A program made the position numbers and the translations under genes. A stretch of DNA of 64,000 bases. Origin: a virus (Duplodnaviria > Caudoviricetes). The notes below the pieces were generated by a model. The model was given only the letters and a program-made list of their open reading frames with translations, searched no databases and was not told where the DNA came from. Positions within the stretch are counted from its first letter, which is position 1. Every line of letters begins with the position of its first letter. Positions 2,208 through 61,678 of the stretch are shown here, one piece after another. Location of the stretch: the IMG/VR virus record IMGVR_UViG_3300035208_002115; one strand, written 5' to 3'.

Positions 2208-2432
2208 ATGATATCTTATTTATCCACCTCTCAACAAGTAGAAGCTGTTAATTTATGGCAGAAATTTGACAGTGTTCAAAAATTTCACTGTAAAAATGAT
2301 ATTAATCATGGTAAATTATCGGTTGGTAATAACAAGGGTGTTATATTTTTATATTGTCAACATTGTAATTATGTGGAAGTAAATATACCAGAAATGATTT
2401 TTCAGAAATATTACTTATTAAAAGATTTGTAA
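2208..2432 (+). CDS. small Zn-binding hypothetical protein
   Basis: HC...H...CQHC. Confidence 0.6.
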   Translation: MISYLSTSQQVEAVNLWQKFDSVQKFHCKNDINHGKLSVGNNKGVIFLYCQHCNYVEVNIPEMIFQKYYLLKDL

Positions 2433-2698
2433 TGAATTTAAAAAAAGATATAGAAATTGATATCATTACTTATCTAAAAGATTATGGTTTTGAAAATTTT
2501 GAAATATCAAATATAAGAGAATGTGTATATAAATATTTAACAAAAACATATACTGTTTACGATTTTAATTTACGTTTAGCTGGAAACTCGCATACATATA
2601 GAATTAAAACTAATAAAATTAACGATTATTATTTGAGAAGAACCAGAAAATTAAAAATAGAAGAATTATTTGATATTGAATTAGAGGTTTTAGAATGA
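2432..2698 (+). CDS. hypothetical protein with RxxK[IL]xx[IL] tail
   Basis: C-terminal TRKLKIEELF. Confidence 0.7.
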   Translation: MNLKKDIEIDIITYLKDYGFENFEISNIRECVYKYLTKTYTVYDFNLRLAGNSHTYRIKTNKINDYYLRRTRKLKIEELFDIELEVLE

Positions 2699-2699
2699 T

Positions 2700-2727
2700 A
2701 AACTTTATTCATTATTTTGAATATATT
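2700..2727 (+). promoter_or_regulatory. AAAC-N18-TATA phage promoter-like motif
   Basis: AAAC 2700-2703, 18 nt, TATATT. Confidence 0.45.
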
Positions 2728-2741
2728 AAATAAAAATTATT

Positions 2742-3293
2742 ATGGATTTTCCTTCTTCTAAAAATAATTTTGATAAAGATTTAATAGATGCTAAGAAATA
2801 TGAACTTTTTGCATTAGAATATTTTCATAAAATTAAACATTATAATATCGTTGAAAATCGTAAAAATGAAGATTTAAAATTTTTCGATTTAATAGTATAT
2901 GATGATAATAATAACGTCCTATGTTTTATTGAGGTTAAGCACGATAAATATGTAGCAATGAATAATCACTTTGCCGTTGAATATGAGTCATGGAAAAAAC
3001 CATCTGGTATAGTAATAACTAAAGCTGAATATTTTATTTTTATTAGCTCCCTTCCTAAAAGTACACAGCATATAATGTATATTTTTAAAACTAAAGAATT
3101 ACGTAAATTTATAAAAAATAATAGGGGTAAACTGGATGCTAAAACTTGTCTTATTATTCAACCATGTATAGTTCAAAATGAAACTAACGCAAAATTTTTT
3201 AGAATTCATTTGGATTATCTTGTTGGTTTATATCAGAAAATAGATGTTACTAAATATGTTGATAATGGTTTATTAACAAACCCTGATTTATAA
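2742..3293 (+). CDS. PD-(D/E)XK nuclease-like protein
   Basis: E...FDL...IEVKHD motif. Confidence 0.55.
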   Translation: MDFPSSKNNFDKDLIDAKKYELFALEYFHKIKHYNIVENRKNEDLKFFDLIVYDDNNNVLCFIEVKHDKYVAMNNHFAVEYESWKKPSGIVITKAEYFIFISSLPKSTQHIMYIFKTKELRKFIKNNRGKLDAKTCLIIQPCIVQNETNAKFFRIHLDYLVGLYQKIDVTKYVDNGLLTNPDL

Positions 3294-3301
3294 AGTTAGA
3301 T

Positions 3302-3604
3302 ATGAAAATATATAACACATCATTACATTTAAAAGCAAAAGAATTTCTTTTAGATGAAGGTTTAAGTGGGGTTAAAATAATATATGTTAAACAGAACATA
3401 TATAGTAAGACAGAAATTTTCACACAAAAAAATAAAAATATAAAAAACCTTGAATATTTGATTTATGAGATTGGGTATGTTTGTTCTAATTTTAATAGAT
3501 TTCATATTTACAAAATAAAATGTGAAAAACTTGAACAATATATTACACAAAGAATGAAAAAATTAAAAGAGTTGTTTGAATATGACCCAGATTTTACAAT
3601 TTAG
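3302..3604 (+). CDS. hypothetical protein with RxxK tail
   Basis: C-terminal QRMKKLKELF. Confidence 0.65.
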   Translation: MKIYNTSLHLKAKEFLLDEGLSGVKIIYVKQNIYSKTEIFTQKNKNIKNLEYLIYEIGYVCSNFNRFHIYKIKCEKLEQYITQRMKKLKELFEYDPDFTI

Positions 3605-4004
3605 AGGTGAATATAGATTTTTATCTAATTTTCATCCAGTTAATATAGAGTACGAAGGAATAGAATACCCTTCAACAGAACATGCATATCAGGCTTGTAA
3701 ATCAACTGATGAAAATACCCGAATATTGGTTTCTAAAATGTCAACCAAGGATGCTAAAGATTTCGGAAAAAACGTGAAATATAGAGATGATTGGGTTGAT
3801 GTTAAAGTCCCATTGATGAAAAATTTATTGATGTTAAAATTTCAGAATGAAGAATTAAAACAAAAACTACTCGCCACTGGAGATGATTATATTGTAGAAG
3901 GTAACGATTGGGGTGATACATTCTGGGGAGTTTGTAATGGTCGAGGTCATAATATGCTTGGAGTTTTATTAATGTATGTCAGATGGCACTATAAAACTTT
4001 ATAA
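3576..4004 (+). CDS. ybiA: NADAR (YbiA-like) ADP-ribose/N-glycoside hydrolase
   Basis: FLSNF, YPSTEHAYQA.K, KF.Q...LL.TG...VEG...D.FWG...G.N.LG..LM. Confidence 0.9.
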   Translation: MNMTQILQFRGEYRFLSNFHPVNIEYEGIEYPSTEHAYQACKSTDENTRILVSKMSTKDAKDFGKNVKYRDDWVDVKVPLMKNLLMLKFQNEELKQKLLATGDDYIVEGNDWGDTFWGVCNGRGHNMLGVLLMYVRWHYKTL

Positions 4005-4005
4005 T

Positions 4006-4638
4006 ATGTTTAATATAGAAAGATACAAAGAATACGAAATTAAATTGATGCCTAATTTTTTTGAAATTCAGACACCAATACTACAATTAAATAAAAAATA
4101 TAATGATAAACCATATAAATTATTTGTCACATACTTTTTAAATGACCAAGGAAAAATTGATATTGTTAAAATATCTTCCTCGTTAATAAATTATATTAGT
4201 TCATGTAAACGAGGTTTCTATGGTACAAGTGAAGGATATTTTTTATCTTATTTAGATGATGAAGTAAAATTTTATTATGCGAATTCCGATAAATCAGATA
4301 TACAATTTGACCCATATATTATGGGTAATGACACAAAAGTGAATGAAGAAGTAGCAGAGAAATATAAAAGATATAATGATGTAGTATTTTATGACCGTTT
4401 TATGTTACATGATGTAAAGTGTGGGTATAATCTCACATTTAAAACAACGGACGTACAAGGATTTATGAAATTTTATAATATTGGTTTGAAAAAATGTGAG
4501 TCACTTTATAAAGAGGGTGATGATAAAAATAAAATATTATCTTTGTATGATGGTGTTTATCAATTAAAAGATTATGATAAATATGTTTTGAATGAAGAAC
4601 GAAAAGCTAAAATAAAATCTATAATTCCTGAGATATGA
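4006..4638 (+). CDS. hypothetical protein with RxxK tail
   Basis: ORF 3976-4638, more likely start ATG 4006; ends ERKAKIKSII. Confidence 0.7.
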   Translation: MFNIERYKEYEIKLMPNFFEIQTPILQLNKKYNDKPYKLFVTYFLNDQGKIDIVKISSSLINYISSCKRGFYGTSEGYFLSYLDDEVKFYYANSDKSDIQFDPYIMGNDTKVNEEVAEKYKRYNDVVFYDRFMLHDVKCGYNLTFKTTDVQGFMKFYNIGLKKCESLYKEGDDKNKILSLYDGVYQLKDYDKYVLNEERKAKIKSIIPEI

Positions 4639-5546
4639 AAGAATTAGTATTGGAAGTTTTTAAGAAGTTTAATATCAATCCAAATGAACTTCTTCGATAT
4701 GATGAACCTCACCGATTTTATCATAACTGGAATCATATTGAATATATGTTATTAAAAGCCCAAGAACAAGGTATATTATCAGATGAATTATTATTAGCTA
4801 TTATATTTCATGATATAATTTATAATCCTAAAAACAAGGATAATGAAGAAAAATCAGCCGAATTATTTAGGCTATATGTAGAGAATGATGAAATAAAATA
4901 TGCTATTTTGGATACTAAAGACCATGTTCCAAATAGTTATTTGTCTACGTTACTATGTAGATTGGACTTGGATGTATTATATTCAGATATTGAAACATTC
5001 ATTAAATTTGAAGATGCAATATTCAAAGAATATCAATTTATCGATTACAAAAAATATAAAGAACACCGACTTAAAATTCTTGAAAATTATAATTTGAAAC
5101 CAGAGTTTTTAGATTATATTAAATATAAAAAGCCAAATATTGCTGTTTATGCAGGTACGTTTTCGCCTTTTCACCGAGGACATTTGAATATTTTAGAAAA
5201 AGCGGAAAAAATATTTGATAAAGTAATTATTGCAAGGGGTATTAACACTGAAAAAAATAATGTTTTAATTGAATTACCAGAAATAATAAAATCCAGACAA
5301 GTAGAATTTTATGATGGGTTGTTGACGGATTTTCTTGACACCCTTGAATATGATGTTACTTTAATCAGGGGATTGCGAAACATTACAGACCTGCAATATG
5401 AATTAACACAGTATAGGTTTCTTCAGGATTTAAAACCTAATATCAAGGTTGTTTCTATATTTTGTGATAAAGAATATGAACATATTAGTAGTTCTGCAAT
5501 AAGGTTATTGGAAAAATATAATAAATCAGATAAATATTTATTATGA
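4635..5546 (+). CDS. coaD: HD-domain / phosphopantetheine adenylyltransferase (CoaD-like) fusion
   Basis: N-terminal RYDEPHRFYHNWNHI...FHD..Y...NEEKSA; C-terminal YAGTFSPFHRGH, IRGLR...D..YE, ISSSAIR. Confidence 0.8.
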   Translation: MKELVLEVFKKFNINPNELLRYDEPHRFYHNWNHIEYMLLKAQEQGILSDELLLAIIFHDIIYNPKNKDNEEKSAELFRLYVENDEIKYAILDTKDHVPNSYLSTLLCRLDLDVLYSDIETFIKFEDAIFKEYQFIDYKKYKEHRLKILENYNLKPEFLDYIKYKKPNIAVYAGTFSPFHRGHLNILEKAEKIFDKVIIARGINTEKNNVLIELPEIIKSRQVEFYDGLLTDFLDTLEYDVTLIRGLRNITDLQYELTQYRFLQDLKPNIKVVSIFCDKEYEHISSSAIRLLEKYNKSDKYLL

Positions 5547-6031
5547 AAAAGAAATTCAGAGAAATAACGATAAATAACAAAAAATATGGTTGGACTCTTA
5601 GAAATAATTGTGATGGTGATGGTGGGGACTGTGTTGAAATTTGGTGTGATAAAAAAGTCATACATCGTGAAATTATATCAGGTCATCTTAATGTTACACC
5701 TAAAATGATTTCTAATTTTATCATTGATTCAACAAATCAAACATATTTAAAAAAATATGCAAAATATCTGGCAAATGAACTGAAAAGTATTAATGATATT
5801 TACGGTGACATATATAAAAAATTAAACGGTGACATATATAAAAAATTAATTGAATTATCTATCAATGGCTCTGATAAACTAAAATCAGAGTTTGAAAAAT
5901 CGTTAATGTCAATTAGAACTATAATAATTATATATGCAAAAACAGATAATTATAATTTGACTTTAAAAACTTATGAAGAATTTGAAAAAATTTCTTCTCG
6001 GAAAGAAAAAATAGATAGTTTATATGATTAA
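5543..6031 (+). CDS. hypothetical protein with RxxK tail
   Basis: Ends SRKEKIDSLYD. Confidence 0.7.
   Translation: MKKKFREITINNKKYGWTLRNNCDGDGGDCVEIWCDKKVIHREIISGHLNVTPKMISNFIIDSTNQTYLKKYAKYLANELKSINDIYGDIYKKLNGDIYKKLIELSINGSDKLKSEFEKSLMSIRTIIIIYAKTDNYNLTLKTYEEFEKISSRKEKIDSLYD
5802..5849 (+). repeat. exact 24-nt tandem duplication (in-frame GDIYKKL repeat)
   Basis: acggtgacatatataaaaaattaa x2. Confidence 0.9.
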
Positions 6032-6257
6032 CCAATCAGTTTATTTTTTAATAGATTCTAATAAAATTATATATGATACACATACAGAAAGAGAATATTA
6101 TGTTTTATCTATAAATAAACATCAGGCAACTTTAAGACCAGTTGGGACAAGTAAGAAAAAATATTTCAGTGTTCCAAATTTTTATGAGAGATTCACAGCA
6201 GATAAAAATGAAATACGGAGATTGAAAATAAAACAGATTTTGGGTGATGATGAGTAA
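6024..6257 (+). CDS. hypothetical protein with RxxK tail
   Basis: Ends EIRRLKIKQILG. Confidence 0.7.
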   Translation: MINQSVYFLIDSNKIIYDTHTEREYYVLSINKHQATLRPVGTSKKKYFSVPNFYERFTADKNEIRRLKIKQILGDDE

Positions 6258-6447
6258 TTATAATATATTTTATAATAGACATACATACAAACAATATCAC
6301 TATGTTAAATGCGATGGAAATGATGTTTATTTAGTCGAAGATGGTTGTAAAAATGTCATACAAATAGCTATTGTTGAATTTCTCACATGTTACACAAATA
6401 GTATAAATGAAATTCGGAAAATTAAAATTGAAAAAATTTTAAAATAA
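6244..6447 (+). CDS. hypothetical protein with RxxK tail
   Basis: Ends EIRKIKIEKILK. Confidence 0.7.
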   Translation: MMMSNYNIFYNRHTYKQYHYVKCDGNDVYLVEDGCKNVIQIAIVEFLTCYTNSINEIRKIKIEKILK

Positions 6448-9094: not shown

Positions 9095-9394
9095 ATGAAA
9101 GATTGTCTTCACTATAAAGAATTAATTAAACATATAAATCACGAATCTCCGTATAGACCTGTTGTAGTTCATATTATTAATGAGTATTATATTATTGATA
9201 TGATGGTTTTTGAACCAATAATATCATTTAAATTATTTAAAATTGATATGGATAAATTTGAATTAATAGAAAATTCTGGTGTTATTTTCGAATTAGTAGG
9301 AAATAAAAACCCTAAATATATTACATTACATGAACTATATAAAATTTTTATTCAAAATAAGAGAAAAAATAAAATAGATTCGCTCTATGAATAA
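9095..9394 (+). CDS. hypothetical protein with RxxK tail
   Basis: Ends KRKNKIDSLYE. Confidence 0.7.
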   Translation: MKDCLHYKELIKHINHESPYRPVVVHIINEYYIIDMMVFEPIISFKLFKIDMDKFELIENSGVIFELVGNKNPKYITLHELYKIFIQNKRKNKIDSLYE

Positions 9395-9740
9395 AAAATT
9401 AGTTATATTAAAGTGTACATATCCCGTAGGTATTTCTGCGAGTCAAACCCAAGAAGTTCTAAAGTATTATTTAGAAAAAATACTGGTCGATTTAAATGAT
9501 AATACTGATAATACTGAATTTAAAATGATTGTTATACCATCTGAAAAATATGAAGTAACTGTAATATATCCAAATGTTGCTATAACAAAAAAAGAATTAA
9601 ACAAAATATTAGATGAGCAAAATAAGAATGTTAAATTATTAAACAATTTGGATAATATAACAAGGGATAAACCTGAAATCAATCGAAATATAAAACAGAT
9701 TTTGAGAAGATTAAAAATATTAGAGATTTCTGATTTTTAA
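9387..9740 (+). CDS. hypothetical protein with RxxK tail
   Basis: Ends LRRLKILEISDF. Confidence 0.7.
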   Translation: MNKKLVILKCTYPVGISASQTQEVLKYYLEKILVDLNDNTDNTEFKMIVIPSEKYEVTVIYPNVAITKKELNKILDEQNKNVKLLNNLDNITRDKPEINRNIKQILRRLKILEISDF

Positions 9741-9959
9741 TGCTCTGACTTCATTTTTGATAAAAGGTATTAAATCTTCTATTTTTTCTACCTTTTTAAT
9801 CATTCTATATTGGCCTTGTGACATTCTAACCCACAATGAATTGAAACGAGTGTTTGTTTCAACAAACATTTCCCTTTCGCCATTAACTTTTAAAACAAAA
9901 GAAACTGGACTTTCACAAGTAAAGTCCAGTTTATATAATTCGTCTATATATTTATCCAT
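9720..9959 (-). CDS. hypothetical protein with RxxK tail
   Basis: Ends EVRALKIRNL; coupled to the upstream minus-strand gene. Confidence 0.65.
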   Translation of the reverse strand: MDKYIDELYKLDFTCESPVSFVLKVNGEREMFVETNTRFNSLWVRMSQGQYRMIKKVEKIEDLIPFIKNEVRALKIRNL

Positions 9960-10761: not shown

Positions 10762-12201
10762 ATGGCAATATTATTAAAAGAAACGAAATTCAGTCAATTA
10801 TCTATTCCAGAAGCAGGTTATATTCTGTTTGGTATTGATAGTGAAACTGGAAATATTAAATATGTTGATTCAACGGGTGAAAGTAAAACTATATCTATTG
10901 ATGTAGGTGGTGATATTACTGGTGATTCTATTGTTGTGGGTACTATTGTTGGTACGCCCGGCACGTATTATTTAGCAAATGGATTAAATGTTCAACCATT
11001 ATCCGATTATGCTCATGCCGAAGGTAGGGAAACAATTGTAACATCATCTGCCGATTATGCTCATGCCGAAGGATATAAAACAACTGCAAGTGCTGAATAT
11101 GCACATTCCCAAGGTGAATATACTACGGCTGCTGGTGAAGCCAGTATGACTGGTGGTATAGGTTCAGCTTCATATCTTGTTATTGCAAGTGCCTCTGCAT
11201 CTGTTAATATTTCATCGACAAGTACCAGAACATCTGATATTGCAGGTTCTAACAGTGTAATAATTGGCGGTGTTGATAATCTTATTGGTATTAGTACAGC
11301 TTCAGCTATCATAGGTGGTAGATTAAATACTATTAACGGTGTTAGTAATAATGGTATATTTGTTGGTATTTCTAATACAATAAATAATACTTCACAAAAT
11401 AGTGTAATAATTGGTGGTAATACTAACACTATTAATACTGCTGGTATATGTGATTCGATAATAGCATCTTATAATTCATCAATCGCATCCAGTTTATCTT
11501 ATGTATCTATTATAGGTATGTCTGGATATGCAGCAACAACATATAACAACGTTGTGTATATGCCAGCAATTGCATTAGTTAATAGTAGTACAACTCCAAC
11601 TGTTAATGGTGCTATTAGATATAATGGTGCAAATTTTCAGGGTTATAGTGGTGGTTGGATTTCATTAGAAAGACCCACTGATTATGTAACAACTGGTTCA
11701 ACCCAATCTATAACAGGTACTAAATCTTTTACCACAATGAATTCTACAACATCAAATATCACCACATTAAATTGTACAACTTCAAATTTTACTGGTGTTA
11801 TGACATTTCCAGTCAATACAAATGTTGTAAAAAATCAAGTAATATATTCTTTCACCACTGGAGCTGATGTTACTACTGAACAAATAATAAGTAGAACATA
11901 TTATTATATTTGTGCAAACATTGAGATACAAAATTCTCATGTAGATGTTATATATAATGTTGAGTTAGACAGTTTTGAGTCTTCAACAACTACTTTATCT
12001 TCAATATTATTGGTTAATATAAACTCAAATGGTTGGTCAAGTGATAGTCTTACTATTAATTTTAGAAATACAGCAAATACTGTTTTAAAAACATATAATA
12101 TACCAGGTTTTACAGGAGGTGTTAAATCTGCTGAATTTACAATTGGATATGTATATGGTGGCACATTGTCAAACAGGTTCATTATAATAGGTAACGTTTA
12201 A
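10762..12201 (+). CDS. tail fibre / adhesin-like virion protein
   Basis: YAHAEG repeats, S.IIGG..N repeats, GAIRYNG..FQGY..GW; start reassigned to MAILL after TAATATATA at 10731. Confidence 0.65.
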   Translation: MAILLKETKFSQLSIPEAGYILFGIDSETGNIKYVDSTGESKTISIDVGGDITGDSIVVGTIVGTPGTYYLANGLNVQPLSDYAHAEGRETIVTSSADYAHAEGYKTTASAEYAHSQGEYTTAAGEASMTGGIGSASYLVIASASASVNISSTSTRTSDIAGSNSVIIGGVDNLIGISTASAIIGGRLNTINGVSNNGIFVGISNTINNTSQNSVIIGGNTNTINTAGICDSIIASYNSSIASSLSYVSIIGMSGYAATTYNNVVYMPAIALVNSSTTPTVNGAIRYNGANFQGYSGGWISLERPTDYVTTGSTQSITGTKSFTTMNSTTSNITTLNCTTSNFTGVMTFPVNTNVVKNQVIYSFTTGADVTTEQIISRTYYYICANIEIQNSHVDVIYNVELDSFESSTTTLSSILLVNINSNGWSSDSLTINFRNTANTVLKTYNIPGFTGGVKSAEFTIGYVYGGTLSNRFIIIGNV

Positions 12202-12940: not shown

Positions 12941-13699
12941 ATGAAAAGTGATTGTATATATCACCGTTCTTTAGACTGTGTTGAAATCGATATTACTTAT
13001 AAATGTAATTTGAAATGTCATAATTGTAATCGTTCCTGTGATATTATAAATTCAGATGATGTTTTCGAAATAAATCAAATTAGAAAATTTTTAGAAAACA
13101 GTGTAATAAATAATAAAATTTGGAGAAGAATTAGGTTGTTAGGTGGTGAACCAACACTCCATCCAGATTTCTTAGAAATACTGAAATTAATTTATCAATA
13201 TAAGATAAAACATAATAAAGAATTGTTAATTGAAATAACTACTAATAATATTTCAATAGAAACAAAAGAATTATTGAAAATATATTTCATAAAATCGAAC
13301 GTTGTTGTTAATATTAGTTATAAAACAGATTTTTATTTAGATGAATTTGTTAATATTTATAATGCACCTATTGATAATTCATATTTTAAAGAAGATAACT
13401 TCGAAGCTGGTTGTGTAATTAGTCAGAATTGTGGAATAGGATTAAATTTATACGGTTTTTATCCTTGTGCTATTTCTGCGAACATAGATAGAATACTTGG
13501 ATTAAATATTGGACGAAAAGTCATACCAAGTGATGATGATACTATGTTAGATTTGTTAAAAATCTTTTGTAAATCGTGCGGTTATTATAAATATTATAGA
13601 GATGATATAATTAAGAATGAAGTTAGTCATTCATGGAAAAAAGTATTTGAAAAATATTTTGATAATAAACCTGTTTTAACAAAAATATATATACAATAA
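12941..13699 (+). CDS. radical SAM protein
   Basis: CNLKCHNC, LLGGEPTLHP, ITTN, further C-terminal Cys. Confidence 0.85.
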   Translation: MKSDCIYHRSLDCVEIDITYKCNLKCHNCNRSCDIINSDDVFEINQIRKFLENSVINNKIWRRIRLLGGEPTLHPDFLEILKLIYQYKIKHNKELLIEITTNNISIETKELLKIYFIKSNVVVNISYKTDFYLDEFVNIYNAPIDNSYFKEDNFEAGCVISQNCGIGLNLYGFYPCAISANIDRILGLNIGRKVIPSDDDTMLDLLKIFCKSCGYYKYYRDDIIKNEVSHSWKKVFEKYFDNKPVLTKIYIQ

Positions 13700-13716
13700 A
13701 ATAAAAATATTAATTT

Positions 13717-14283
13717 ATGACTCTATTAGCAAGTGGTAGTTTAAGTTTATTGGGGACAGCAGGTATAAATAGAAATATATCTCAGGAAGTTGATAGAAAC
13801 TCAGTATCACCCAAACAATTTACTACTGTATCATCACATGCTATCCCTTCATATTTACCAGTGAGTATGAGTAATTATTATAGTTATACACAACCATATA
13901 TTAATTTTGGGACGGTTTCTTACGATGTGAATAATGCTTCACAAATTGATGCTAATAGGTCAGTCGATATGTATGGAAAATCAGCACAATGGACTATTGT
14001 GGTTTATGGATATTTATATTGTTTAGGTACATCACCAGTTGGTAATTTGTGGTATAGAAGAAGTGGTGGAGCATGGGTTAAGTTTTTAGAATTGTTAACC
14101 ACTGGTAGCAACTATATTTATTATAGTATAGATATGTATTATTCGGAAACGTTAGATGTTAGAATAAACATATATAATAATGCAAGTTTACAAGGTATTA
14201 TTAATTTAGTAAGTGTTTCCGAACCATCAACAACAAGAGTTCCTTATGTTGGTACTACAAATACTTGGACTGTTTCACTTTAA
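13717..14283 (+). CDS. putative virion / tail-fibre-associated protein
   Basis: MTL.ASG.LS N-terminus, S/T/Y-rich, follows ATATATA motif. Confidence 0.45.
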   Translation: MTLLASGSLSLLGTAGINRNISQEVDRNSVSPKQFTTVSSHAIPSYLPVSMSNYYSYTQPYINFGTVSYDVNNASQIDANRSVDMYGKSAQWTIVVYGYLYCLGTSPVGNLWYRRSGGAWVKFLELLTTGSNYIYYSIDMYYSETLDVRINIYNNASLQGIINLVSVSEPSTTRVPYVGTTNTWTVSL

Positions 14284-14284
14284 A

Positions 14285-14662
14285 TTATTTAAGAAGTTTA
14301 ATTAAATCAGTCATTAAAATAGAAATAAGTTTTTTACCTTCTATTTCGACATCTGGTATATTTTTTATTATAGAGTATTTATCATTACCATCTATTTCTA
14401 ATTTAGATAGATGTTCTTTTAAAATTGTGTGGTGTGCATAATAATTTTTCAATTCAGATAAGAATTTAGTTAAATCGAAACCCTCCTTATTGTTATATTT
14501 TATCATTTTTAACTCATTATCTTGGTTCTCAACCATGATATACCATATACTTTTCTTGGAGATTTTAATATTTTCAAGAAAATTATAGGCGTGATGAGCT
14601 TTTGTGTTCTTAGGAAACTTTGCTATTTTACCAATAAAATTTACGTTTTTATCATTTGACAT
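14285..14662 (-). CDS. hypothetical protein, paralogue of 56929-57522 C-terminal part
   Basis: Shared F..KIA.F....KAH.A..FLE...WY..E.....L...KYN..EGF.L...DL.KLL. Confidence 0.75.
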   Translation of the reverse strand: MSNDKNVNFIGKIAKFPKNTKAHHAYNFLENIKISKKSIWYIMVENQDNELKMIKYNNKEGFDLTKFLSELKNYYAHHTILKEHLSKLEIDGNDKYSIIKNIPDVEIEGKKLISILMTDLIKLLK

Positions 14663-14733
14663 ATATAAATATCATATTTTATAGTATATATTTAAAAGAA
14701 TTGGTCGTATTTGGTCGTTTTTAAATATAGTTT

Positions 14734-14991
14734 TTAATTTCGATGCTTATTGTAGTATTTATCAACAGTATAGTTCCAAAAATTTCTTACAACTAATGTT
14801 GATTCGTGCATCCATACAGTCATTTTTTCCAATCTAATGAGAAATTCATTTGTAGTATCATTCCCAAATATATAATGAGAAAATGCTTTTTTATATAAAT
14901 TATTTTCATAATCAAATCTTTTATCTGGATTGTAATCATGTCTGTGATTTAATTCATACAATTCTTTGATATGTTTTTGTTCTTCAATCAT
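14734..14991 (-). CDS. hypothetical protein
   Basis: ORF track. Confidence 0.65.
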   Translation of the reverse strand: MIEEQKHIKELYELNHRHDYNPDKRFDYENNLYKKAFSHYIFGNDTTNEFLIRLEKMTVWMHESTLVVRNFWNYTVDKYYNKHRN

Positions 14992-15009
14992 AAAAATGTT
15001 TTATTTTTT

Positions 15010-15020
15010 AATATATATAA
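15010..15020. promoter_or_regulatory. late-type AATATATA promoter motif, probably bidirectional
   Basis: AATATATATAA between divergent genes, 20-28 nt from both starts. Confidence 0.5.
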
Positions 15021-15037
15021 AAAAAACATATTATAAA

Positions 15038-15337
15038 ATGAAAAGTTTTCTGGATTTTGTAAATGAAAAAGAAATAATGATAAAAGTTGAGTTAGATGTT
15101 GTTGAAACGGAAACATCTGTCGATAGTGATGATGTTGAAGATAATATTTTAACAATAATGAACTCTCTCGAATTTAAACAATGGATATCTAATCTTACCG
15201 AAGAAGAAATAAAAAACATTGAAATTGGAGCTGCTGATTTTTATAAATCCGAACCTCAAAATGCAGAATATTTACGTAAATGTTTTTTTGTAGAAAAATT
15301 TTTAGAACAACAATCAAATGAGGATAAAACTATTTGA
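15038..15337 (+). CDS. putative head-packaged protein (CTS-like N-terminus)
   Basis: Start reassigned: MKSFLDFVNE. Confidence 0.65.
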   Translation: MKSFLDFVNEKEIMIKVELDVVETETSVDSDDVEDNILTIMNSLEFKQWISNLTEEEIKNIEIGAADFYKSEPQNAEYLRKCFFVEKFLEQQSNEDKTI

Positions 15338-15839
15338 ACAATTTAGTAAGAAGTGGTATCATGGTTCTAAAGAAACTTTTTCTGATTTTAAATTAAAAAA
15401 AGGAACTCTTTTAGATTATAATTATATAGCACCTATATTTTTAACGTCTGATTTAGAATTTGCTGAAGCACATGCTGGATATAAAACCCCACATATTTAT
15501 GAAATTGAAGTGTTGACAGATAAATTATTTGATTATAAAAAAATACCAAATGGATATGACTTGTTTAGATTCTTAGAAAAAGATATTAAAAAAGATGATG
15601 ATAAAGATTACACCCTTGGTAAAAAGTTATATTTTGATATCGAAAATAAGTCAGATGATGTAGATAGAATGTATGGTGGTATATGTTCTGGTGAATATAG
15701 TGAATTAGAACAAGTTTGGTTTTATGATTGGTTGAAAAAAAATGGTTATGATGGTGCATATGTGAGAGAAACTGGTATCGTTAATTTATTTATTTTTGAC
15801 ACCAAAAAATTGAAGATAATAAAAACAATAACACAGTAA
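15318..15839 (+). CDS. ADP-ribosyltransferase-fold protein with CTS-like N-terminus
   Basis: MRIKLFEQF; WYHGS...F...IFLTSD..FA..HA...IYE...GYDG. Confidence 0.55.
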   Translation: MRIKLFEQFSKKWYHGSKETFSDFKLKKGTLLDYNYIAPIFLTSDLEFAEAHAGYKTPHIYEIEVLTDKLFDYKKIPNGYDLFRFLEKDIKKDDDKDYTLGKKLYFDIENKSDDVDRMYGGICSGEYSELEQVWFYDWLKKNGYDGAYVRETGIVNLFIFDTKKLKIIKTITQ

Positions 15840-15841
15840 TA

Positions 15842-16381
15842 ATGAAATCTTTTATATGTTTTATTAATGAAAAACGAGTAGTTAGAGAAGAAAGAATTGA
15901 AATTTTAAGAGATTCCAAATATATAGTAGTTGCACCATTATCTGAAATAGCAAGTTGTAAATACGGTGCTTATACTCATTGGTGTACATCTAATCCGCAT
16001 TCTGGTGCATGGTCAGATGATTATGTTAATGGTGAAAACCAAAATAAGTTAATCTATATTATACAACGAAATTATAACATGACTCCAGAAAATAAAGAGA
16101 AATCTGAAGAATATTATTATCTAAATCAGAAAATAGAAAATCAAGATTTTGATGACGAAGAAGATAAAGAAAGAACACAAGAAAGATTTAGTGACTTAAA
16201 TGATGATGAAGAATCATTAGATTTTTCTAAAATTGCAATAGAATATAATAATAGAAATAAAAGTTTTGTCATCTGGAGTGCCAATAATATTCCAATATCT
16301 GAAACTCGGTATTATGACTTGGGTAATTTGCCGATAGATGACTATGTTATAGATAGAATAAAAGATTTTTGTAAAACTTAA
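15842..16381 (+). CDS. CTS-tagged protein with SCKYG..T.WC motif (PcfJ-like)
   Basis: MKSFICFINE; PLS..ASCKYGAYTHWCTS. Confidence 0.5.
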   Translation: MKSFICFINEKRVVREERIEILRDSKYIVVAPLSEIASCKYGAYTHWCTSNPHSGAWSDDYVNGENQNKLIYIIQRNYNMTPENKEKSEEYYYLNQKIENQDFDDEEDKERTQERFSDLNDDEESLDFSKIAIEYNNRNKSFVIWSANNIPISETRYYDLGNLPIDDYVIDRIKDFCKT

Positions 16382-16411
16382 TATTGTTTAATATTATTAA
16401 ACAAAATCATT

Positions 16412-18898
16412 TTAAAAGTCAAATGATTCATTGAGCATATTCTGGAATATTTCTTTCTCTCGTTTACGTTGTTCGATGCCAATTTCGTTTCCTTTTAATC
16501 CAGAATCCATCAACTCTTGACCTGATACGGATAAATTATATTCAATAAATTTATTTGTGAATTTCTTATCCAGACTATGTATATCTGAAAATTCTCTGAT
16601 AATATCAGGATTGATATCTAATTGATTCTGTTTCTTTTTCATATCATATACTTTATCGACATCACCGATATTATCATAGAATGTTATTAAAAAACAAATA
16701 ACATCGGCATAATCAGATGAAAATTTAAATTCCCGAATCAATCTTTTATTAAAATCACCGTTTGGAATGTTTTCTAAAAATAAATAAGTATACATTTGAA
16801 TTAAATCTAAACTATTGATATTTATTACATCTTCATTAATGAGCGTATTTTTAAACATTTGATTCCACATCTTGAACCCAGTTAAATATCTCAAATACAT
16901 TTTCCAAGCTGATAAATCATTTTTATCGGATGCATATTCCCACATTTTCCATATTTCTTCCAGTATTCTTTCTTGTGAAACATCGTCTTCAGGTGAAATA
17001 CCACTTAATTGATTATCTTTTTTAATAGCATTGGCTGTTTCTTCATCAATTTTATTATGACTTCTGGCAGCAAATCTGAAACAACGAATTATGCGAAGGC
17101 GGTCTTCTTTAAATCTTTCTGAAGGGTTTCCAACAGTCCTTATAATACCATTTTTTATATCATCGATACCACCAACCAAATCAATTATTTGTTTCTTATC
17201 TATATCATAAAAAAGAGCATTTTGTGTTAAATCTCTACGCTTAACATCATCTTCAATTGTAATATGAGAACCTATTTCTACCTTTTGGTCATCACCTTTG
17301 GTATTTCTTCCTGATGAGATATCACGCCTGTATGAAGCTATCTCATAACCTTTTGGTTCATCCTCTGTAAATACTCTTATAACACCAAAATGTGCGCCTT
17401 GTAAATCGGTTCTATAATCTTTTAATATCTTCTTAGTTTCTTCTGGTAGAGCATCAGTTACTAAATCATAATCATGTGGTATCTTACCCATAATAAAATC
17501 ACGAATCGCACCACCAACTATGAAAAGTTTTTTACCAGCTTCGCTGAATAAATCATGAAATTCTAAAACATCTTCTGGTATAAACATTTCGGTATTTAAA
17601 TTATTGTTTTCGTTATATTTTTTTATTGTGGTGTTTTTTGTTTCTTCATTTCTACAAATATATGGTTTAATATTAAAATATTCATACACTCCATGTCCAA
17701 TCCCAGACTTATTTTCTATTAAATCATATCTGGCTACTAAGTAATCCCCTGATATAAAAAATGATTTAGCATTAATTAAAACAGAAAATACATACGGTTT
17801 TCCACTATTATTAGTCATCAAACTGTATCTTTTTGATGTTTCATAATCAATACCAAACCAACTTCCACTTTTAAATTTACCTGATTTTAAAATTTTCTTA
17901 AAATTAGCTGGAGTTGTCCCATGATAAACTTGTAAGAATTTTTCTCCATTTAATTCATGAATTGTTACTTTATTCCTGATAGCAAAATCCAAATTCATTT
18001 TCTCATAAAAATCTGAATCATCATCAGATTCATTAATTTTATTATTTTGTAATAAAAAAGAATCCGATTGAATATATGCTAATATTTCTGTTTCACCGTT
18101 TACTAATGCTTGTTCAATTCTATGAAATCCATCAATTACACCTGACTTTTGAACATCACCACCCCTTGAAATATCACCTACTATAATAGGAGTTTCTATA
18201 ATTTTTATTTTTATGATTGGTTCACTCGAATTTAAATATTCTTTTAAATCCACATCATTTTGTATCAGTTTAGAAATAGGGATGTTTGTTAATATATAAT
18301 TATGACTTTTAATAACATTTTCCAAATCATCTATATCATTGTCTTTTTTTCTAATTAATGAAAAAACGACATCACCACTTATAATATTATTTTCATTTGT
18401 TTTATACATTTTAAAATCGGAGAACTTTATAAGAGATTCATATTCTGGTTTATCTCTTTTATCTATTAATTCAACACCATATTTTTTTGCATAATCATGA
18501 AGTAACCCTCTTGCTTTTTCCCAGCCCTTTTTTGAATATCCAGATGTTTCTAATCTGAAATTATTATTTTTACAGAATTTCATCATGGTATCAACTATAT
18601 TCTTAACATATCCACGACCTTGATATTCTTCAATTATAGATATATAATCTATCCAAAATAAATCTTGTTGATTATATGGACTTTCTTCTAATTTACATAG
18701 ACCAATAATTTCTTTATCATCGAATAATGTGACAAAAAATATTCTGGAAACATATAATTTTGATAGAGTGTTTGAATATGATGCACGGACATCATTATAA
18801 TAAAAATATTTTATTTTTTTTTCTAAATCATATGGTTCACCACGACTATATATGATATCTGATAATTCTTTTTGACTTAGTACAACTGTGTTAATCAT
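16412..18898 (-). CDS. polyprotein: GNAT + ParB/Srx-like + ART-like + CCA-adding/poly(A) polymerase-family nucleotidyltransferase
   Basis: aa~80-100 IDYISI.EEYQGRG; aa~235-275 PIIV...VIDGFHRI; aa~323 VYHGT..WF; aa~460-620 VGGAIRD..DYD, RRDLT.NAL, F.EDRLR..R.FRF. Confidence 0.8.
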   Translation of the reverse strand: MINTVVLSQKELSDIIYSRGEPYDLEKKIKYFYYNDVRASYSNTLSKLYVSRIFFVTLFDDKEIIGLCKLEESPYNQQDLFWIDYISIIEEYQGRGYVKNIVDTMMKFCKNNNFRLETSGYSKKGWEKARGLLHDYAKKYGVELIDKRDKPEYESLIKFSDFKMYKTNENNIISGDVVFSLIRKKDNDIDDLENVIKSHNYILTNIPISKLIQNDVDLKEYLNSSEPIIKIKIIETPIIVGDISRGGDVQKSGVIDGFHRIEQALVNGETEILAYIQSDSFLLQNNKINESDDDSDFYEKMNLDFAIRNKVTIHELNGEKFLQVYHGTTPANFKKILKSGKFKSGSWFGIDYETSKRYSLMTNNSGKPYVFSVLINAKSFFISGDYLVARYDLIENKSGIGHGVYEYFNIKPYICRNEETKNTTIKKYNENNNLNTEMFIPEDVLEFHDLFSEAGKKLFIVGGAIRDFIMGKIPHDYDLVTDALPEETKKILKDYRTDLQGAHFGVIRVFTEDEPKGYEIASYRRDISSGRNTKGDDQKVEIGSHITIEDDVKRRDLTQNALFYDIDKKQIIDLVGGIDDIKNGIIRTVGNPSERFKEDRLRIIRCFRFAARSHNKIDEETANAIKKDNQLSGISPEDDVSQERILEEIWKMWEYASDKNDLSAWKMYLRYLTGFKMWNQMFKNTLINEDVININSLDLIQMYTYLFLENIPNGDFNKRLIREFKFSSDYADVICFLITFYDNIGDVDKVYDMKKKQNQLDINPDIIREFSDIHSLDKKFTNKFIEYNLSVSGQELMDSGLKGNEIGIEQRKREKEIFQNMLNESFDF

Positions 18899-20371: not shown

Positions 20372-20962
20372 TTAAAATTCAGGAAATAACTCTTTTATTT
20401 TTTCTGCCCTGACTCTTTTCAATTCGGGTAATGTCCAAAACGCTTGTCCTTTTGAATATGAGAAATCTCTATCATTAACTACCTTATACATTCTATCTTC
20501 AAATGTGATATAATAATTGTTAAATTGTGTTTTATATACATCAGATTCTTTACCGTTGATAGTTATATTATCATCCCATGCATATTCAAGTTCAACTTTT
20601 CTTAGAATAAGATTTATTTCTGTATCATCTTCGTCATAAATTCTCGAAACGGGTTTAGTTGGGAGTTTTTTATTCGGCATTTTTTTACCTGTCGATACAA
20701 AATAAAAATATGTATTTTCTATCACTTTTTCCGAATGCTTTCTTACATCTGTTTCAAGTTTTTTATAAACAAACCTAATATATTTCAGCAATTCTAATTC
20801 TTTTAGAATTTGTAAGACCTTTTCATTTTTTTCGTGATAACCCAGCAACATACCAGTTTTTCTTTTGGTATAATATCTTCGATAATATTTTCTATGTAAA
20901 TCTGTTATTTCGATGTTATTTTTCATTATTTTATGATTTAAATTCATCATTAAATATTTCAT
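20372..20962 (-). CDS. hypothetical protein with RxxK tail
   Basis: Ends VRAEKIKELFPEF. Confidence 0.7.
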   Translation of the reverse strand: MKYLMMNLNHKIMKNNIEITDLHRKYYRRYYTKRKTGMLLGYHEKNEKVLQILKELELLKYIRFVYKKLETDVRKHSEKVIENTYFYFVSTGKKMPNKKLPTKPVSRIYDEDDTEINLILRKVELEYAWDDNITINGKESDVYKTQFNNYYITFEDRMYKVVNDRDFSYSKGQAFWTLPELKRVRAEKIKELFPEF

Positions 20963-21296
20963 CTAAAGCGAGAATTCTTCGTCCAATTTTTTTCTCATTC
21001 CATAAAGATTGTTCTGAAAAATTAATAAATCTAAGACTCCTATACCAATTATTATTATATTGAATATAAGCTGAACTAATATTGTGTCCAGAAGACTGTA
21101 ATAATGTACATTCTTTTCTATTTATGAAAATTATAGATTTAATAAGATAAGGGAAAAATTTTTTGTGTTTCGATAAATTGAATGACACTTCACAAAATTC
21201 ATATTCCCCATCATTTATATCATATAGAAACATACTCATTATATTATAAATATTTATCAAAAATAATAAGATATAATGTATAAAAAAAATCATCAA
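20931..21296 (-). CDS. hypothetical protein with tail variant (true start probably further downstream)
   Basis: Ends RRILALDEIF. Confidence 0.55.
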   Translation of the reverse strand: MMIFFIHYILLFLINIYNIMSMFLYDINDGEYEFCEVSFNLSKHKKFFPYLIKSIIFINRKECTLLQSSGHNISSAYIQYNNNWYRSLRFINFSEQSLWNEKKIGRRILALDEIFNDEFKS

Positions 21297-22389: not shown

Positions 22390-22570
22390 CTATTGTAATC
22401 ATATTTAGTGTATCCATAATACATAATTATATATTAATAGTGCCATTATGAGATTTTTCTAAGAAAAATAAAAATATTTTTTATACTGGTGAATATCAAC
22501 AAAATAATATTTAGTCAATATATAAGATAATAAAATATATTTTTCTTTTTTTTAAGAATAAAATAAACGC

Positions 22571-22849
22571 ATGAATAACAAGGTAATAGCTGGGAAGATA
22601 ATTAATAAAGAACTTGGAAATAAACTTTTAAAAATAGATTTAAATAGTATTAAGTATATAACAATTGCTGGTACAAGTAAAATTGATGGAATGCCATTTA
22701 TAATAATTAGTAAAAATATACTTAGGAGAATGAAAATAAATGAATTATTTTCAGATTTTAATGATTGTGTAATATCTGATATTGAAAGAGAAATATTAAA
22801 AGCCTTTGAAGATAATAATAAAGAAATACTTGAAATCATAATGATATAA
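22571..22849 (+). CDS. hypothetical protein with internal RxxK motif
   Basis: LRRMKINELF; followed by a terminator. Confidence 0.65.
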   Translation: MNNKVIAGKIINKELGNKLLKIDLNSIKYITIAGTSKIDGMPFIIISKNILRRMKINELFSDFNDCVISDIEREILKAFEDNNKEILEIIMI

Positions 22850-22875
22850 AAAAGCCACTTAAAAAGTGGCTTTTT
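22849..22875. terminator. bidirectional intrinsic terminator
   Basis: aaaaagccactt-aaa-aagtggcttttt between convergent genes. Confidence 0.8.
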
Positions 22876-22916
22876 CATTGAACTTAACTTAACTTAAAAA
22901 TCCCTATGAAAAATTT

Positions 22917-57522: not shown

Positions 57523-57523
57523 T

Positions 57524-59203: not shown

Positions 59204-59210
59204 AACATTT

Positions 59211-59723
59211 ATGAAAAATTATAAACAATTTCTTGAAAATCTTGGTTCTGGTGCATACGCATCATTCGCTAATGATTCTGGCGAGAACTTTTGGGGTAAC
59301 GTGGGTGGTGGAGTATTACCAATATGCACTGAAACTAAAAGAATATTATTACCTTTTCGTTCAGGATATGTAAATGAGCCTCATTGTTTTGGAGTTTGGG
59401 GTGGTAAAATAGATGAAGAATATGGTCAGACCGAAGATGATATTATGGATGTGGTAAAACGTGAATTCATGGAAGAATCTGGTTATGACAGTGAAATTAA
59501 ATTAATACCAGCATACATTTTTAAAACTTCCAATAATTCGTTTACATATTATAATTTCATTGGGTTGTTAGATGAAGAATTCGACCCCGAATTAAATTGG
59601 GAAACCGAAAGTTACAAATGGGTTACATTCGATGAAATGATAGAAATTAAACCTAAACATTTCGGGTTGGTTGGTTTATTAAAACACGATTCAAATAAAA
59701 TAAGAAATTATTGTAATGCTTAA
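59211..59723 (+). CDS. CTS-tagged Nudix hydrolase
   Basis: MKNYKQFLE; WGG.......E......REFMEESG Nudix box. Confidence 0.85.
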   Translation: MKNYKQFLENLGSGAYASFANDSGENFWGNVGGGVLPICTETKRILLPFRSGYVNEPHCFGVWGGKIDEEYGQTEDDIMDVVKREFMEESGYDSEIKLIPAYIFKTSNNSFTYYNFIGLLDEEFDPELNWETESYKWVTFDEMIEIKPKHFGLVGLLKHDSNKIRNYCNA

Positions 59724-60624
59724 AACTTTTTTATTTTTTATTAAAGAGAATAATACACATATTAATGAATATAAAAACGTTGGAGTTGTATATCATATAG
59801 TTGACATAGAGAAACTTTTTTATATATTAAGAAACAATAAGATATCTTCAAAATCATTCTCAAATATATCAACAACCAGAGATAAAATGATGGGTGGTTA
59901 TATAGGTGGTTCTCCGACATCAGTTTTTAAATTGGAATTAGACGGTGATGCTTTATCACATAAATATAAAATTAAACCGTTTTCTTATATAAGCAATACA
60001 AATATATATTTTGATGAAAAAGAAGAACAAATAAAAACTCAGGAAATAAAAGATATAAAAAAATATATTAATAAAATCATAATCAGTAAGAATAGATTAG
60101 ATGATTTAAAACAAAGTGGTTGGTTCACGACTGATGGTGGACATGTTGATGGTAAAGGTCGAATACCGTTCCCAGAGATATTCAAAGAATTAATCGATTT
60201 AATAAAAGAAGACGGATTATATGATAAATTATATATTCAAGATGGTTCGATTATCAAGAAAGATGATGTTTATATTCAATCGGTGTTGAATTATTTTTTA
60301 TTAAAAATATATCACGGGTATTGTTATTATATGAGAGGATATAAAGAAGGTATACATCAAGAATTAGGTTTGAAAGTTATGTTAGATGATATCTTACCTA
60401 TTGATGAACGAAATAAAAAGATTGAAAAATTAGTAATTGGATATGATTATGAAAATATGTGGCTACATAAAAAATCATACCCAATGGATGTTAAACTGAA
60501 AGATGGTTATTCTTTATACGAATTTGATTTTAAGTATGAATTAGAAGATATTATATCTGAAGATGTTAATTTCGTCTTTGTTAAAAATACACACCTAAAA
60601 CATATTGGTAAATTAAAAGGTTAA
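59716..60624 (+). CDS. CTS-tagged ART-fold-like protein (similar to 44607-45188)
   Basis: MLKTFLFFIKE; VYH......IL, ISTTRD, LDG..LS..YKIKPF, E.EEQI. Confidence 0.5.
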   Translation: MLKTFLFFIKENNTHINEYKNVGVVYHIVDIEKLFYILRNNKISSKSFSNISTTRDKMMGGYIGGSPTSVFKLELDGDALSHKYKIKPFSYISNTNIYFDEKEEQIKTQEIKDIKKYINKIIISKNRLDDLKQSGWFTTDGGHVDGKGRIPFPEIFKELIDLIKEDGLYDKLYIQDGSIIKKDDVYIQSVLNYFLLKIYHGYCYYMRGYKEGIHQELGLKVMLDDILPIDERNKKIEKLVIGYDYENMWLHKKSYPMDVKLKDGYSLYEFDFKYELEDIISEDVNFVFVKNTHLKHIGKLKG

Positions 60625-60626
60625 CA

Positions 60627-60977
60627 ATGAAAAAATATTTAATAATAATATTTTTATTTTTATTTACTATTAGTTATTCTCAGCGAATATACAGGACGGA
60701 GTATAAAGATAGCGCACAATATTGTATATATGAAAGTGTGTTTAAGAGTGATAGCACCTATTCTATATATGTAGTTAAGGATACTATTGAATTTATAGGC
60801 CAAGGTAACTGGTATTTTGTGACAGATAAAAATCAGGCCGATTTTATATTATATTTCACCGATTATAAATCGGAAGCCCAATTTAGAGTGTATTATGTCA
60901 GTAATCGTTTTCAGATAAACGAAAAAGAGACGGTTATTATTAAAAAGAAATTTTTTAAAAGATTTTTTAAATTGTAA
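60627..60977 (+). CDS. exported Bacteroidota-type small protein (DUF6150-like)
   Basis: Signal peptide ending YSQ; repeats ..Y...A...VY.V, G.WYFV....ADF..YF. Confidence 0.5.
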   Translation: MKKYLIIIFLFLFTISYSQRIYRTEYKDSAQYCIYESVFKSDSTYSIYVVKDTIEFIGQGNWYFVTDKNQADFILYFTDYKSEAQFRVYYVSNRFQINEKETVIIKKKFFKRFFKL

Positions 60978-61317
60978 CAGAATTAAAAAAATCTTGCATT
61001 TCTTTTACACCCCCGATAAGTATAAAATTCCCCTTTAATGTTAGTTTTTGAAATTCAGATGAATTTATATCTACAAATTTGTAATCATCTTCAGTATGTG
61101 AAACAAATTGTTCTGTTACTTTCATCAAAGTAACTATGTTTTCACTAATAGATGAAGTAAATTTTGTGTTGATTAACGATTTTAACTTTTTTTGTTCTTT
61201 CTTTAACTGGTCGGAATATTTTATTCCGTTTTTTCTTAATGTAATCTCATCTATTTTCTGAAATTGACTGTAATTTGTGGATGCCAAAGGGGATTTTGAA
61301 AACATACCAGCTTTCAT
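60967..61317 (-). CDS. hypothetical protein
   Basis: ORF track; TAACTTTG (-7 element) at 61347-354 on the minus strand. Confidence 0.65.
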   Translation of the reverse strand: MKAGMFSKSPLASTNYSQFQKIDEITLRKNGIKYSDQLKKEQKKLKSLINTKFTSSISENIVTLMKVTEQFVSHTEDDYKFVDINSSEFQKLTLKGNFILIGGVKEMQDFFNSVTI

Positions 61318-61393
61318 TACTTAGATTTAGATTAATAATAAACAGACAAAGTTATTAAAAAATAATATATTAACAAATATTTTAACAAATATT

Positions 61394-61678
61394 TTAATCT
61401 TCTTTAAAAATATCTCTAATTTTACTTCTTCGGGCTAATTTAAGAGCATCTTTTTCCCAATCCACCTTATCTTTATAGTGTTTGCCGTTTATATAATATT
61501 GATTAGTTCCAGTATTTTTGTGGTATAATATAGCAGCATCAAAAATATTATGATATTCACCGTTAAATTTGGATTCTATTCTATCTGTAAATCTTATTTT
61601 TATTATCTTATTTTGATAATCTTCAAAAAACCATTCATCTAATTTATACTTCTCTATTTGATGTTGTTCAAGACTCAT
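61394..61678 (-). CDS. hypothetical protein with RxxK tail
   Basis: G..H....AA.......YYING; ends ARRSKIRDIF. Confidence 0.7.
   Translation of the reverse strand: MSLEQHQIEKYKLDEWFFEDYQNKIIKIRFTDRIESKFNGEYHNIFDAAILYHKNTGTNQYYINGKHYKDKVDWEKDALKLARRSKIRDIFKED

Follow-up and report, generated by a model that had tools for sequence, protein, structure and literature searches.

Shared docking tails are an established principle, examples being the PIP-box, the acidic tails of SSB and T7, degrons, cargo peptides and, in phage T4, the capsid targeting sequence (CTS). Here we describe a C-terminal tail with the core R-K-x-K-[IL]-x-x-[IL]-[FL], noticed in a 64,000-nt stretch of viral DNA (IMG/VR record IMGVR_UViG_3300035208_002115; hereafter the window, meaning this whole stretch) and present on about 170 proteins of the giant phage genome that contains it. 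We tentatively read this tail as a portable short linear docking motif that would offer one common receptor site to all its carriers. PIP-box and other clamp peptides, such as those of archaeal and eukaryotic PCNA clients, resemble it: they too form a short helix close to the protein end, in which basic residues surround hydrophobic ones at i, i+3 and i+4, and they join many clients to one hub. The PIP-box core reads Q-x-x-[ILM]-x-x-[FY]-[FY], and the hydrophobic/acidic T4-type form is a C-terminal ...[LF]-x-x-[IM]-F-D-F; the tail fits their spacing, but it has K in place of Q and an aliphatic residue at position 7, and its F is lost in the related phages G003 and G008. Clamp motifs are also without the invariant R and K of the tail, whose clients, about 170, are not DNA enzymes.

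Other described systems share some of these properties. The T4 CTS, a tag of about 10 residues on internal proteins, is like the tail portable and found on unrelated small proteins of a T4-related phage, but it is N-terminal and cleaved by the prohead protease, and the C-terminal tail does not qualify as a CTS. Poxvirus ankyrin/PRANC proteins combine, as the carriers do, variable and fast-evolving binder bodies with one C-terminal handle, which in their case links them to a single host machine, and the comparison extends to fragments of essential viral genes joined to a common module; PRANC, in contrast, is F-box-like, a eukaryotic Skp1 binder that folds as a domain of some 50 residues, and the tail is a motif of 9-12 residues in a bacteriophage. 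Type IV effectors (Legionella Dot/Icm) make up about 10% of the proteome and have unrelated bodies as well, with a signal in the last 20-30 residues; that signal is compositional, unlike the strict motif described here, and no secretion machine is evident in our genome. In ClpX C-motif 2 and SspB XB peptides a basic cluster followed by an aliphatic C-terminus is read by one AAA+ machine, yet these signals stand at the very end of the protein, whereas the tail is followed by 0-12 residues and differs between lineages. Helices of the MinD/FtsA type carry a net positive charge and a broad hydrophobic face, with acidic residues scarce and no position invariant, a description that does not fit the tail. 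The literature searched held no description of a strict tag that is borne by 15% of the proteins of a phage and conserved in a megaphage clade.

Frequency, position and conservation of the tail

The window corresponds to bases 381,370-445,369 of the genome G000, a single contig of 675,678 bp with a guanine-cytosine (GC) content of 27%, whose nearest public records are uncultured megaphages of 642-735 kb. Among the 1,154 open reading frames (ORFs) returned for this genome by a simple longest-ORF caller, a pattern search gave 190 motif matches, and 164 ORFs had the motif within 30 residues of the end. With a position matrix (score >10) we obtained 183 matches in the real proteins vs. 3 in the 1,154 shuffled ones; 171 ORFs (15%) are C-terminal carriers by this measure (match within 30 residues of the end), where about 3 were expected, and about 90% of the strong matches lie within that distance. 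The full consensus is R-K-x-K-[IL]-[KE]-E-[IL]-[FL]-[DGE]-[DE], with E or D frequent at positions +5, +6, +9 and +10. It is followed by 0-12 variable, often acidic residues, the stop codon falling most often two residues past F/L. When 150 sequences were aligned, 90% conservation was reached by R and K only.

The carriers are small (median 113 amino acids, aa), distributed across the whole genome and often arranged in arrays. Their bodies had been called unrelated in the first-pass annotation of the window, and this holds genome-wide: 169 tail-trimmed bodies fell into 160 BLASTP components (E<1e-3), 152 of them singletons, which is not the picture of a paralogous family with a shared C-terminal domain of 30 or more residues. 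Pfam matches were obtained for about 7 of the 150 carriers scanned and comprise a CBASS inhibitor of the Acb3 type, a receiver domain, an ankyrin protein, DUF4987, an SprT-type zinc ribbon and small pieces of polymerase B and of the major capsid protein. Membrane proteins are rare among the carriers, a transmembrane-like segment being found in 7 of 171. Two proteins, encoded at G000 291443-291958 (-) and 565419-566657 (-), have internal tags followed by [IL]-F-G-F-E-K; in the first of them the tail-bearing unit is fused ahead of a MazG-like pyrophosphohydrolase domain.

Within the window, the tails and tail-like motifs are as follows.

2645-2671, plus strand: RKLKIEELF tail of ORF 2432-2698 (88 aa)
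3551-3577, plus strand: RMKKLKELF tail of ORF 3302-3604 (100 aa)
4600-4626, plus strand: RKAKIKSII tail of ORF 3976-4638 (220 aa)
5999-6025, plus strand: RKEKIDSLY tail of ORF 5543-6031 (162 aa)
6216-6242, plus strand: RRLKIKQIL tail of ORF 6024-6257 (77 aa)
6415-6441, plus strand: RKIKIEKIL tail of ORF 6244-6447 (67 aa)
9362-9388, plus strand: RKNKIDSLY tail of ORF 9095-9394 (99 aa)
9705-9731, plus strand: RRLKILEIS tail of ORF 9387-9740 (117 aa)
9723-9746, minus strand: RALKIRNL tail, the final 8 residues of ORF 9720-9959 (79 aa)
20384-20410, minus strand: RAEKIKELF tail of ORF 20372-20962 (196 aa)
20952-20978, minus strand: RILALDEIF, degenerate tail with K replaced, ORF 20931-21296 (121 aa)
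22724-22750, plus strand: RRMKINELF, not strictly terminal, ORF 22571-22849 (92 aa)
33368-33394, plus strand: RKAKLDEIF tail of ORF 33224-33439, whose frame opens at 33173
33776-33802, plus strand: RQKKIKEIL in ORF 33647-33880 (77 aa)
34915-34941, plus strand: RKQKLETIF tail of ORF 34696-34962 (88 aa)
35057-35083, plus strand: RKNKIEEIF tail of micro-ORF 34964-35119 (51 aa)
35204-35230, plus strand: RKAKIEYIF tail of micro-ORF 35120-35257 (45 aa)
38850-38876, plus strand: RKKKLEEIF tail of ORF 38376-38891 (171 aa)
39309-39335, plus strand: RKRKLDEIF tail of ORF 38901-39344 (147 aa), a paralogue of ORF 38376-38891
61406-61432, minus strand: RRSKIRDIF tail of ORF 61394-61678 (94 aa)

The first-pass annotation had named 19 of these ORFs, and the motif was present in all 19 at the places it gave; the degenerate copy that closes ORF 20931-21296 was absent from its list. 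R..K[IL]..[IL] falls within 25 residues of the stop in 16 of the 19 proteins and further in in the other three. The residues that follow the motif number 32 in ORF 22571-22849, 25 in ORF 33647-33880 and 14 in ORF 33224-33439. The proposed comparison with shuffled proteins came out clearly in favour of C-terminal enrichment, since within-protein shuffling of the 104 ORFs of the window gave 2.1 motifs in total and 0.21 near the C-terminus, against 19 and 16 observed. No recognisable structural protein was found among the listed ORFs in the Pfam scan of carriers, and none has the N-terminal CTS-like tag described below, both as originally noted. ORF 22571-22849 (+) overlaps an ORF on the opposite strand, 22552-22878 (-); the shorter, plus-strand frame with its tag-like motif is probably the real gene of the pair.

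All six Arg codons are used at the motif (AGA 43%, CGA 23%, AGG 17%, the remainder being CGT, CGG and CGC), the codons for K, I, L, F, E and D at motif positions correspond to genome usage, and the exchange of I and L seen there is a two-base change. As codon usage at the motif mirrors that of the genome, conservation acts on the protein, which excludes that the peptide is merely the translation of a promoter, a terminator or a recombination cassette. For an orthologue comparison we used 105 carriers with reciprocal best hits in the complete, 640-kb relative G001. Median identity to G001 was 59% for carriers; the remaining small proteins had a median of 76% and large proteins one of 81%. The strict motif was kept in 87 of the 105 pairs. 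Identity per position reached 95% for R, 93% for K, 79-81% for the two I/L positions and 76% for F, whereas in the same pairs the bodies were 56% identical and the x positions 49-69%. These values indicate purifying selection on the tail at the protein level.

The gene ends themselves could in principle generate such a pattern, if the tail were a by-product of gene-end constraints, such as coupling to the following gene or promoter or terminator DNA, or of 3′ ends that share an origin. Overlap with the following gene is more frequent in carriers than in the other small genes that are conserved (47% vs. 24%), probably because carriers sit in dense arrays, and they more often end in TGA (30% vs. 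13%). Yet synonymous codons are used freely at all motif positions, which largely excludes a gene-end artefact; 36% of carriers are uncoupled from the downstream gene, the motif-to-stop distance is variable, and amino-acid identity peaks exactly at R and K. We therefore regard an origin in gene structure as very improbable.

Relatives, modularity and predicted structure of the tail

Related phages differ widely in how many of their genes are tagged, the tag-rich ones reaching 11-16%:

G001: 109 of 986 genes tagged
G008 (330 kb): 95 of 600 genes tagged
G003: 14 of 127 genes tagged
G006: 9 of 469 genes tagged
G007: 7 of 567 genes tagged
G004: 2 of 236 genes tagged

The tag-poor G006, G007 and G004 have the same GC content as the tag-rich relatives and similar polymerase identity, and in loci with polymerase identity of 48% or less not one gene was tagged. 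AT-driven composition, a concern of the first-pass annotation, is not the cause of the motif, since related contigs of 24-26% GC are tagged on just 0.8-1.9% of their genes. Tail-like ends were also seen in published megaphage sequence: a 50-kb sample of LR756502 (642 kb) held three where 0.3 were expected, and a sample of LR756501 (735 kb) held one. The tail is a trait of a clade of AT-rich giant phages. When conserved clients were sought among the carriers of the tag-poor G006 and G007, these carriers proved to be ORFans as well.

The form of the tail varies with lineage. G003 and G008 retain the core R-K-x-K-L-x-x-[IL], with N, K or E at position +8, which is F or L in G000; a lineage-specific change at this position is expected if the pocket that the tail follows differs between lineages. 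In G008 the variant R-K-x-K-L-x-K-I-N is strongly basic, and because it is purely so, we consider self-association of tails unlikely.

Homologous bodies may carry the tail or be without it. In the helical family to which window ORFs 38376-38891 and 38901-39344 belong, the tail is present in five loci from other phages, while in two loci (L059 and L062) members of the same family have a C-terminal extension of about 110 residues in its place. Homologues of ORF 38376-38891 in tag-poor loci are without the tail; homologues of ORF 38901-39344 in distant phages, at about 30% identity, keep it. In G007 and G008 the Acb3 homologues lack the motif and have a related basic stretch at their end, which suggests that the tail can arise in place by few substitutions. 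By these comparisons the tail is modular.

In the AlphaFold2 model of ORF 38376-38891 (mean predicted local distance difference test score, pLDDT, of 82), the tail is predicted to form a helix of its own, residues 155-168, past a break in the chain. The pLDDT is 65-73 in this helix and above 90 in most of the body, and a separate helix of lower pLDDT implies that the tail is no integral part of the fold. A Foldseek search with the model gave no match at E <= 0.001. On a helical wheel R(0), [IL](4), [IL](7) and F(8) share one face, with K(3) at its edge; such a face would suit a hydrophobic groove with an acidic rim.

A helix of this kind might, alternatively, need no protein receptor and bind anionic membrane, DNA or structured RNA directly, bringing the carriers to a higher concentration there. 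Three basic and two or three aliphatic residues in a helical pattern, and the strongly basic G008 variant, would be in keeping with this, and the membrane-targeting sequences of the MinD type are comparable basic amphipathic helices. However, binders of that sort tolerate any basic residue, whereas R and K of the tail are near-invariant at fixed positions; acidic residues are common within and after the motif in G000, and just two hydrophobic residues are left in the sister lineages. The near-invariance of R and K, the freedom of the x residues and the lineage-specific change at +8 all argue for a specific reader rather than a membrane or bulk nucleic acid, and we consider direct binding of this type distinctly unlikely.

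Competing destinations and the search for a receptor

G000 encodes a family-B DNA polymerase, RB69-like, in two distant genes (539510-540991, plus strand, and 659109-660566, minus strand, about 118 kb apart), together with a gp44-like clamp loader. A gene for a sigma-70-type factor adjoins that of the polymerase C-terminal part; in G001 the ORF with this part is longer (656 aa vs. 485 aa), with an extra stretch between the two matched parts. Two classes of motif are enriched upstream of genes genome-wide, the phage-type AATATATA, which precedes most large genes, and the Bacteroidota -7 element TAnnTTTG, and point to a Bacteroidota host and a phage-specific sigma factor. In the intergenic regions of the whole genome a phage-type TTAATATATA-like motif lies 20-40 nt upstream of about 117 genes, most large genes included. 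Polymerase, clamp loader, sigma-70-type factor and the two promoter motif classes together indicate a T4-related giant phage, probably with a Bacteroidota host. The minus strand of the window also encodes a fusion protein that joins a GNAT acetyltransferase with the head domain of a poly(A)/CCA-type nucleotidyltransferase (16412-18898), a PhoH-like protein (21447-22232) and a 408-aa protein with S1 RNA-binding domains (22917-24143).

A second tag bears on where the carriers might be sent. The N-terminal motif M-K-Y-L-K-T-F-E-x-F is found on 38 other ORFs genome-wide, mostly acidic and often in arrays, and never together with the C-terminal tail. We take it to be a close analogue of the T4 CTS. 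Examples are:

window 35692-36219, minus strand: ORF starting with the N-terminal tag
G000 13434-16698: N-terminally tagged ORFs
G000 124507-127337: N-terminally tagged ORFs
G000 608813-610709: N-terminally tagged ORFs

The tail could nevertheless be a sorting signal for virion packaging, membrane translocation or a compartment. Secretion effector repertoires, encapsulin cargo peptides and the encapsulation peptides of microcompartments likewise combine unrelated bodies with a shared signal, and a single C-terminal signal on about 15% of the proteome, on small proteins with unrelated bodies, would be in line with them. In addition, the phage encodes a membrane-anchored, Bcs1-like AAA ATPase (G000 632267-633565, minus strand; N-terminal anchor, E=1e-37 to mitochondrial Bcs1), and phage homologues of Bcs1 have been proposed to transport folded proteins into heads (PMC7824862). 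Against such sorting stands first the CTS-like tag: with a separate, non-overlapping N-terminal signal on other proteins, capsid targeting by the C-terminal tail is unlikely, and the capsid is accordingly disfavoured as the compartment that the first-pass annotation had listed among possible hubs. Carriers are, moreover, enriched behind host-type, presumably early, promoters and not among late genes: their share is about 25% where the promoter is of the Bacteroidota type and about 10% where it is of the phage type, a difference of about 2.5-fold under a rough assignment of classes. They also include known cytoplasmic functions (Acb3, receiver domains). The Bcs1-like ATPase was rejected as the reader because the complete, tag-rich G001 has no homologue of it. 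A sorting role thus seems unlikely, and neither the interior of the capsid nor the Bcs1-like ATPase is likely to be the receptor. At G000 633578-635560 (-) we also observed a nucleotide-sugar epimerase/dehydratase gene split by an intein with a LAGLIDADG domain.

The sliding clamp was another proposed hub, and the C-termini of gp43, gp33 and gp55 of T4/RB69 are known to bind it. The [IL]-x-x-[IL]-F spacing of the tail is the hydrophobic spacing of the PIP-box and also fits the phage's own polymerase tail, ...G-F-F-S-S-I-F-D-F; the tag is C-terminal with basic residues flanking a hydrophobic core, and the RB69-like polymerase and gp44-like clamp loader would provide the setting. Basic flanks increase the affinity for PCNA by orders of magnitude, and divergent PIP-type motifs and the role of such flanks have been described (PMC6881253). 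The polymerase tail, however, is without the R and K that define the tag, and the G003 polymerase retains ...S-I-F while the tags of G003 are without F. DNA enzymes are not among the carriers: the tag is absent from the polymerase, the exonuclease and the clamp loader, and no complete replication enzyme is tagged. About 170 clients, anti-CBASS and ankyrin proteins among them, would lie far beyond the known clamp clientele. The proposal of the clamp as hub is therefore not supported by the T4/RB69-type tail of the polymerase, and we judge docking of the carriers on a phage clamp to be decidedly improbable. A sliding clamp gene was not found with Pfam gp45-slide_C, DNA_PPF and DNA_pol3_beta, with a hidden Markov model (HMM) built from two annotated gp45 sequences, with PHROGs on ten conserved proteins or by looking up in the Atlas the 313-aa protein encoded next to the clamp loader. 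The best match of the gp45 HMM in the relatives was not a clamp; it was a 175-aa protein (G003 65675-66199, G006 145026-145559, G007 61394-61939, G008 10964-11491) that we judge by eye to be a phage homologue of translation initiation factor IF3. With its G003 and G006 copies as queries, BLAST returned no homologue in G000 or G001.

A further role for a C-terminal signal is that of a degron or protease handle, which would deliver carriers, or anything bound to them, to an AAA+ unfoldase or protease and time their turnover. Basic-then-aliphatic C-termini are known from MuA, whose RRKKAI serves as a ClpX tag (C-motif 2), and from the SspB XB peptide, and the tail has the same order of residues at the same end. 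A short life is plausible for many fast-evolving accessory proteins, and tagged mini-proteins that copy motifs of core phage proteins would fit a bait-and-destroy logic. On the other hand, the motif stands off the extreme C-terminus, so that the variable, often acidic residues after it take the place of a free carboxylate; it differs by lineage although host proteases are conserved, and no ClpP is encoded. Delivery to a protease is, in our assessment, improbable.

Candidate readers were also sought in the phage genome itself. A conserved module at G000 184817-189010 (+) encodes a 567-aa protein and the MoxR-like AAA ATPase whose partner it is, along with another, small protein that is VWA-like. 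In the 567-aa protein (184817-186520) an HExxH metallopeptidase motif and the VWA MIDAS motif D-x-S-x-S are intact; homologues of it occur in G001 and G007, and homologues of the ATPase in G001, G003, G004 and G007. Complex prediction with this VWA-metallopeptidase and the last 47 residues of ORF 38376-38891 gave no answer and counts neither way. Presence/absence profiling over seven related contigs, noisy because the relatives are fragments of 9-49% completeness, gave weak candidates only, and is moreover invalid since tag-poor lineages still hold a few good tails. The most striking candidate, an acidic 141-aa protein (G000 210626-211051) found in tag-rich genomes only, was dropped because it carries the N-terminal CTS-like tag itself.

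The tail as a putative docking motif

The docking or addressing helix proposed in the first-pass annotation agrees with the selection on the tail, the invariance of R and K, the modularity, the C-terminal bias and the modelled helix, whereas the part of that proposal that gives all carriers one common hub goes beyond these observations. That the tail binds at all, that it has a single receptor and that docking has a consequence is what we infer. Under the docking reading, the tail would be an amphipathic helix of two to three turns, with Arg, two aliphatic residues and, in this sub-clade, Phe on one face and Lys at the edge, placed C-terminally on about 170 fast-evolving accessory proteins, mostly small and with no function assigned. 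Its common receptor site, on a protein of the phage or of the host, would be an acidic-rimmed hydrophobic groove. The bodies, variable as they are, would each recognise a target of their own, and the tail would link them to a shared machine, following the logic of substrate-adaptor families such as the F-box/PRANC proteins.

Several points weigh against this reading. The tag-poor sisters show that a phage of the clade can manage almost without the tag, and the carriers span more than one temporal class, as far as the rough split by promoter class goes. The invariance of R and K could equally serve an enzyme that modifies R or K, or nucleic-acid binding. Finally, the search for a receptor by profiling, candidate ATPases and clamp searches found none.

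Enrichment behind host-type promoters, fast evolution, the presence of an anti-defence protein and bait-like mini-proteins would together suggest that the carriers are host-interaction proteins coupled to one machine. In its furthest form this would make the tail a universal handle that plugs about 170 "binder" proteins into one effector machine, a counterpart of F-box/PRANC, which we think rather unlikely. Mini-proteins copying motifs of the phage's own capsid, protease and polymerase would count among the binders. If this were true, the phage would possess a programmable system to sequester, relocate or destroy many targets of the host or of rival phages via a single reader.

Most genes of giant phages are small ORFans that offer no handle for study. 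Here, a single 9-residue label gathers about 170 of them into one functional class, and the tag peptide provides an experimental hook for pulling down its reader. Should there be a single reader, identifying it would show how an accessory repertoire of this size is organised in a megaphage, and could yield a transferable tag for phage engineering.

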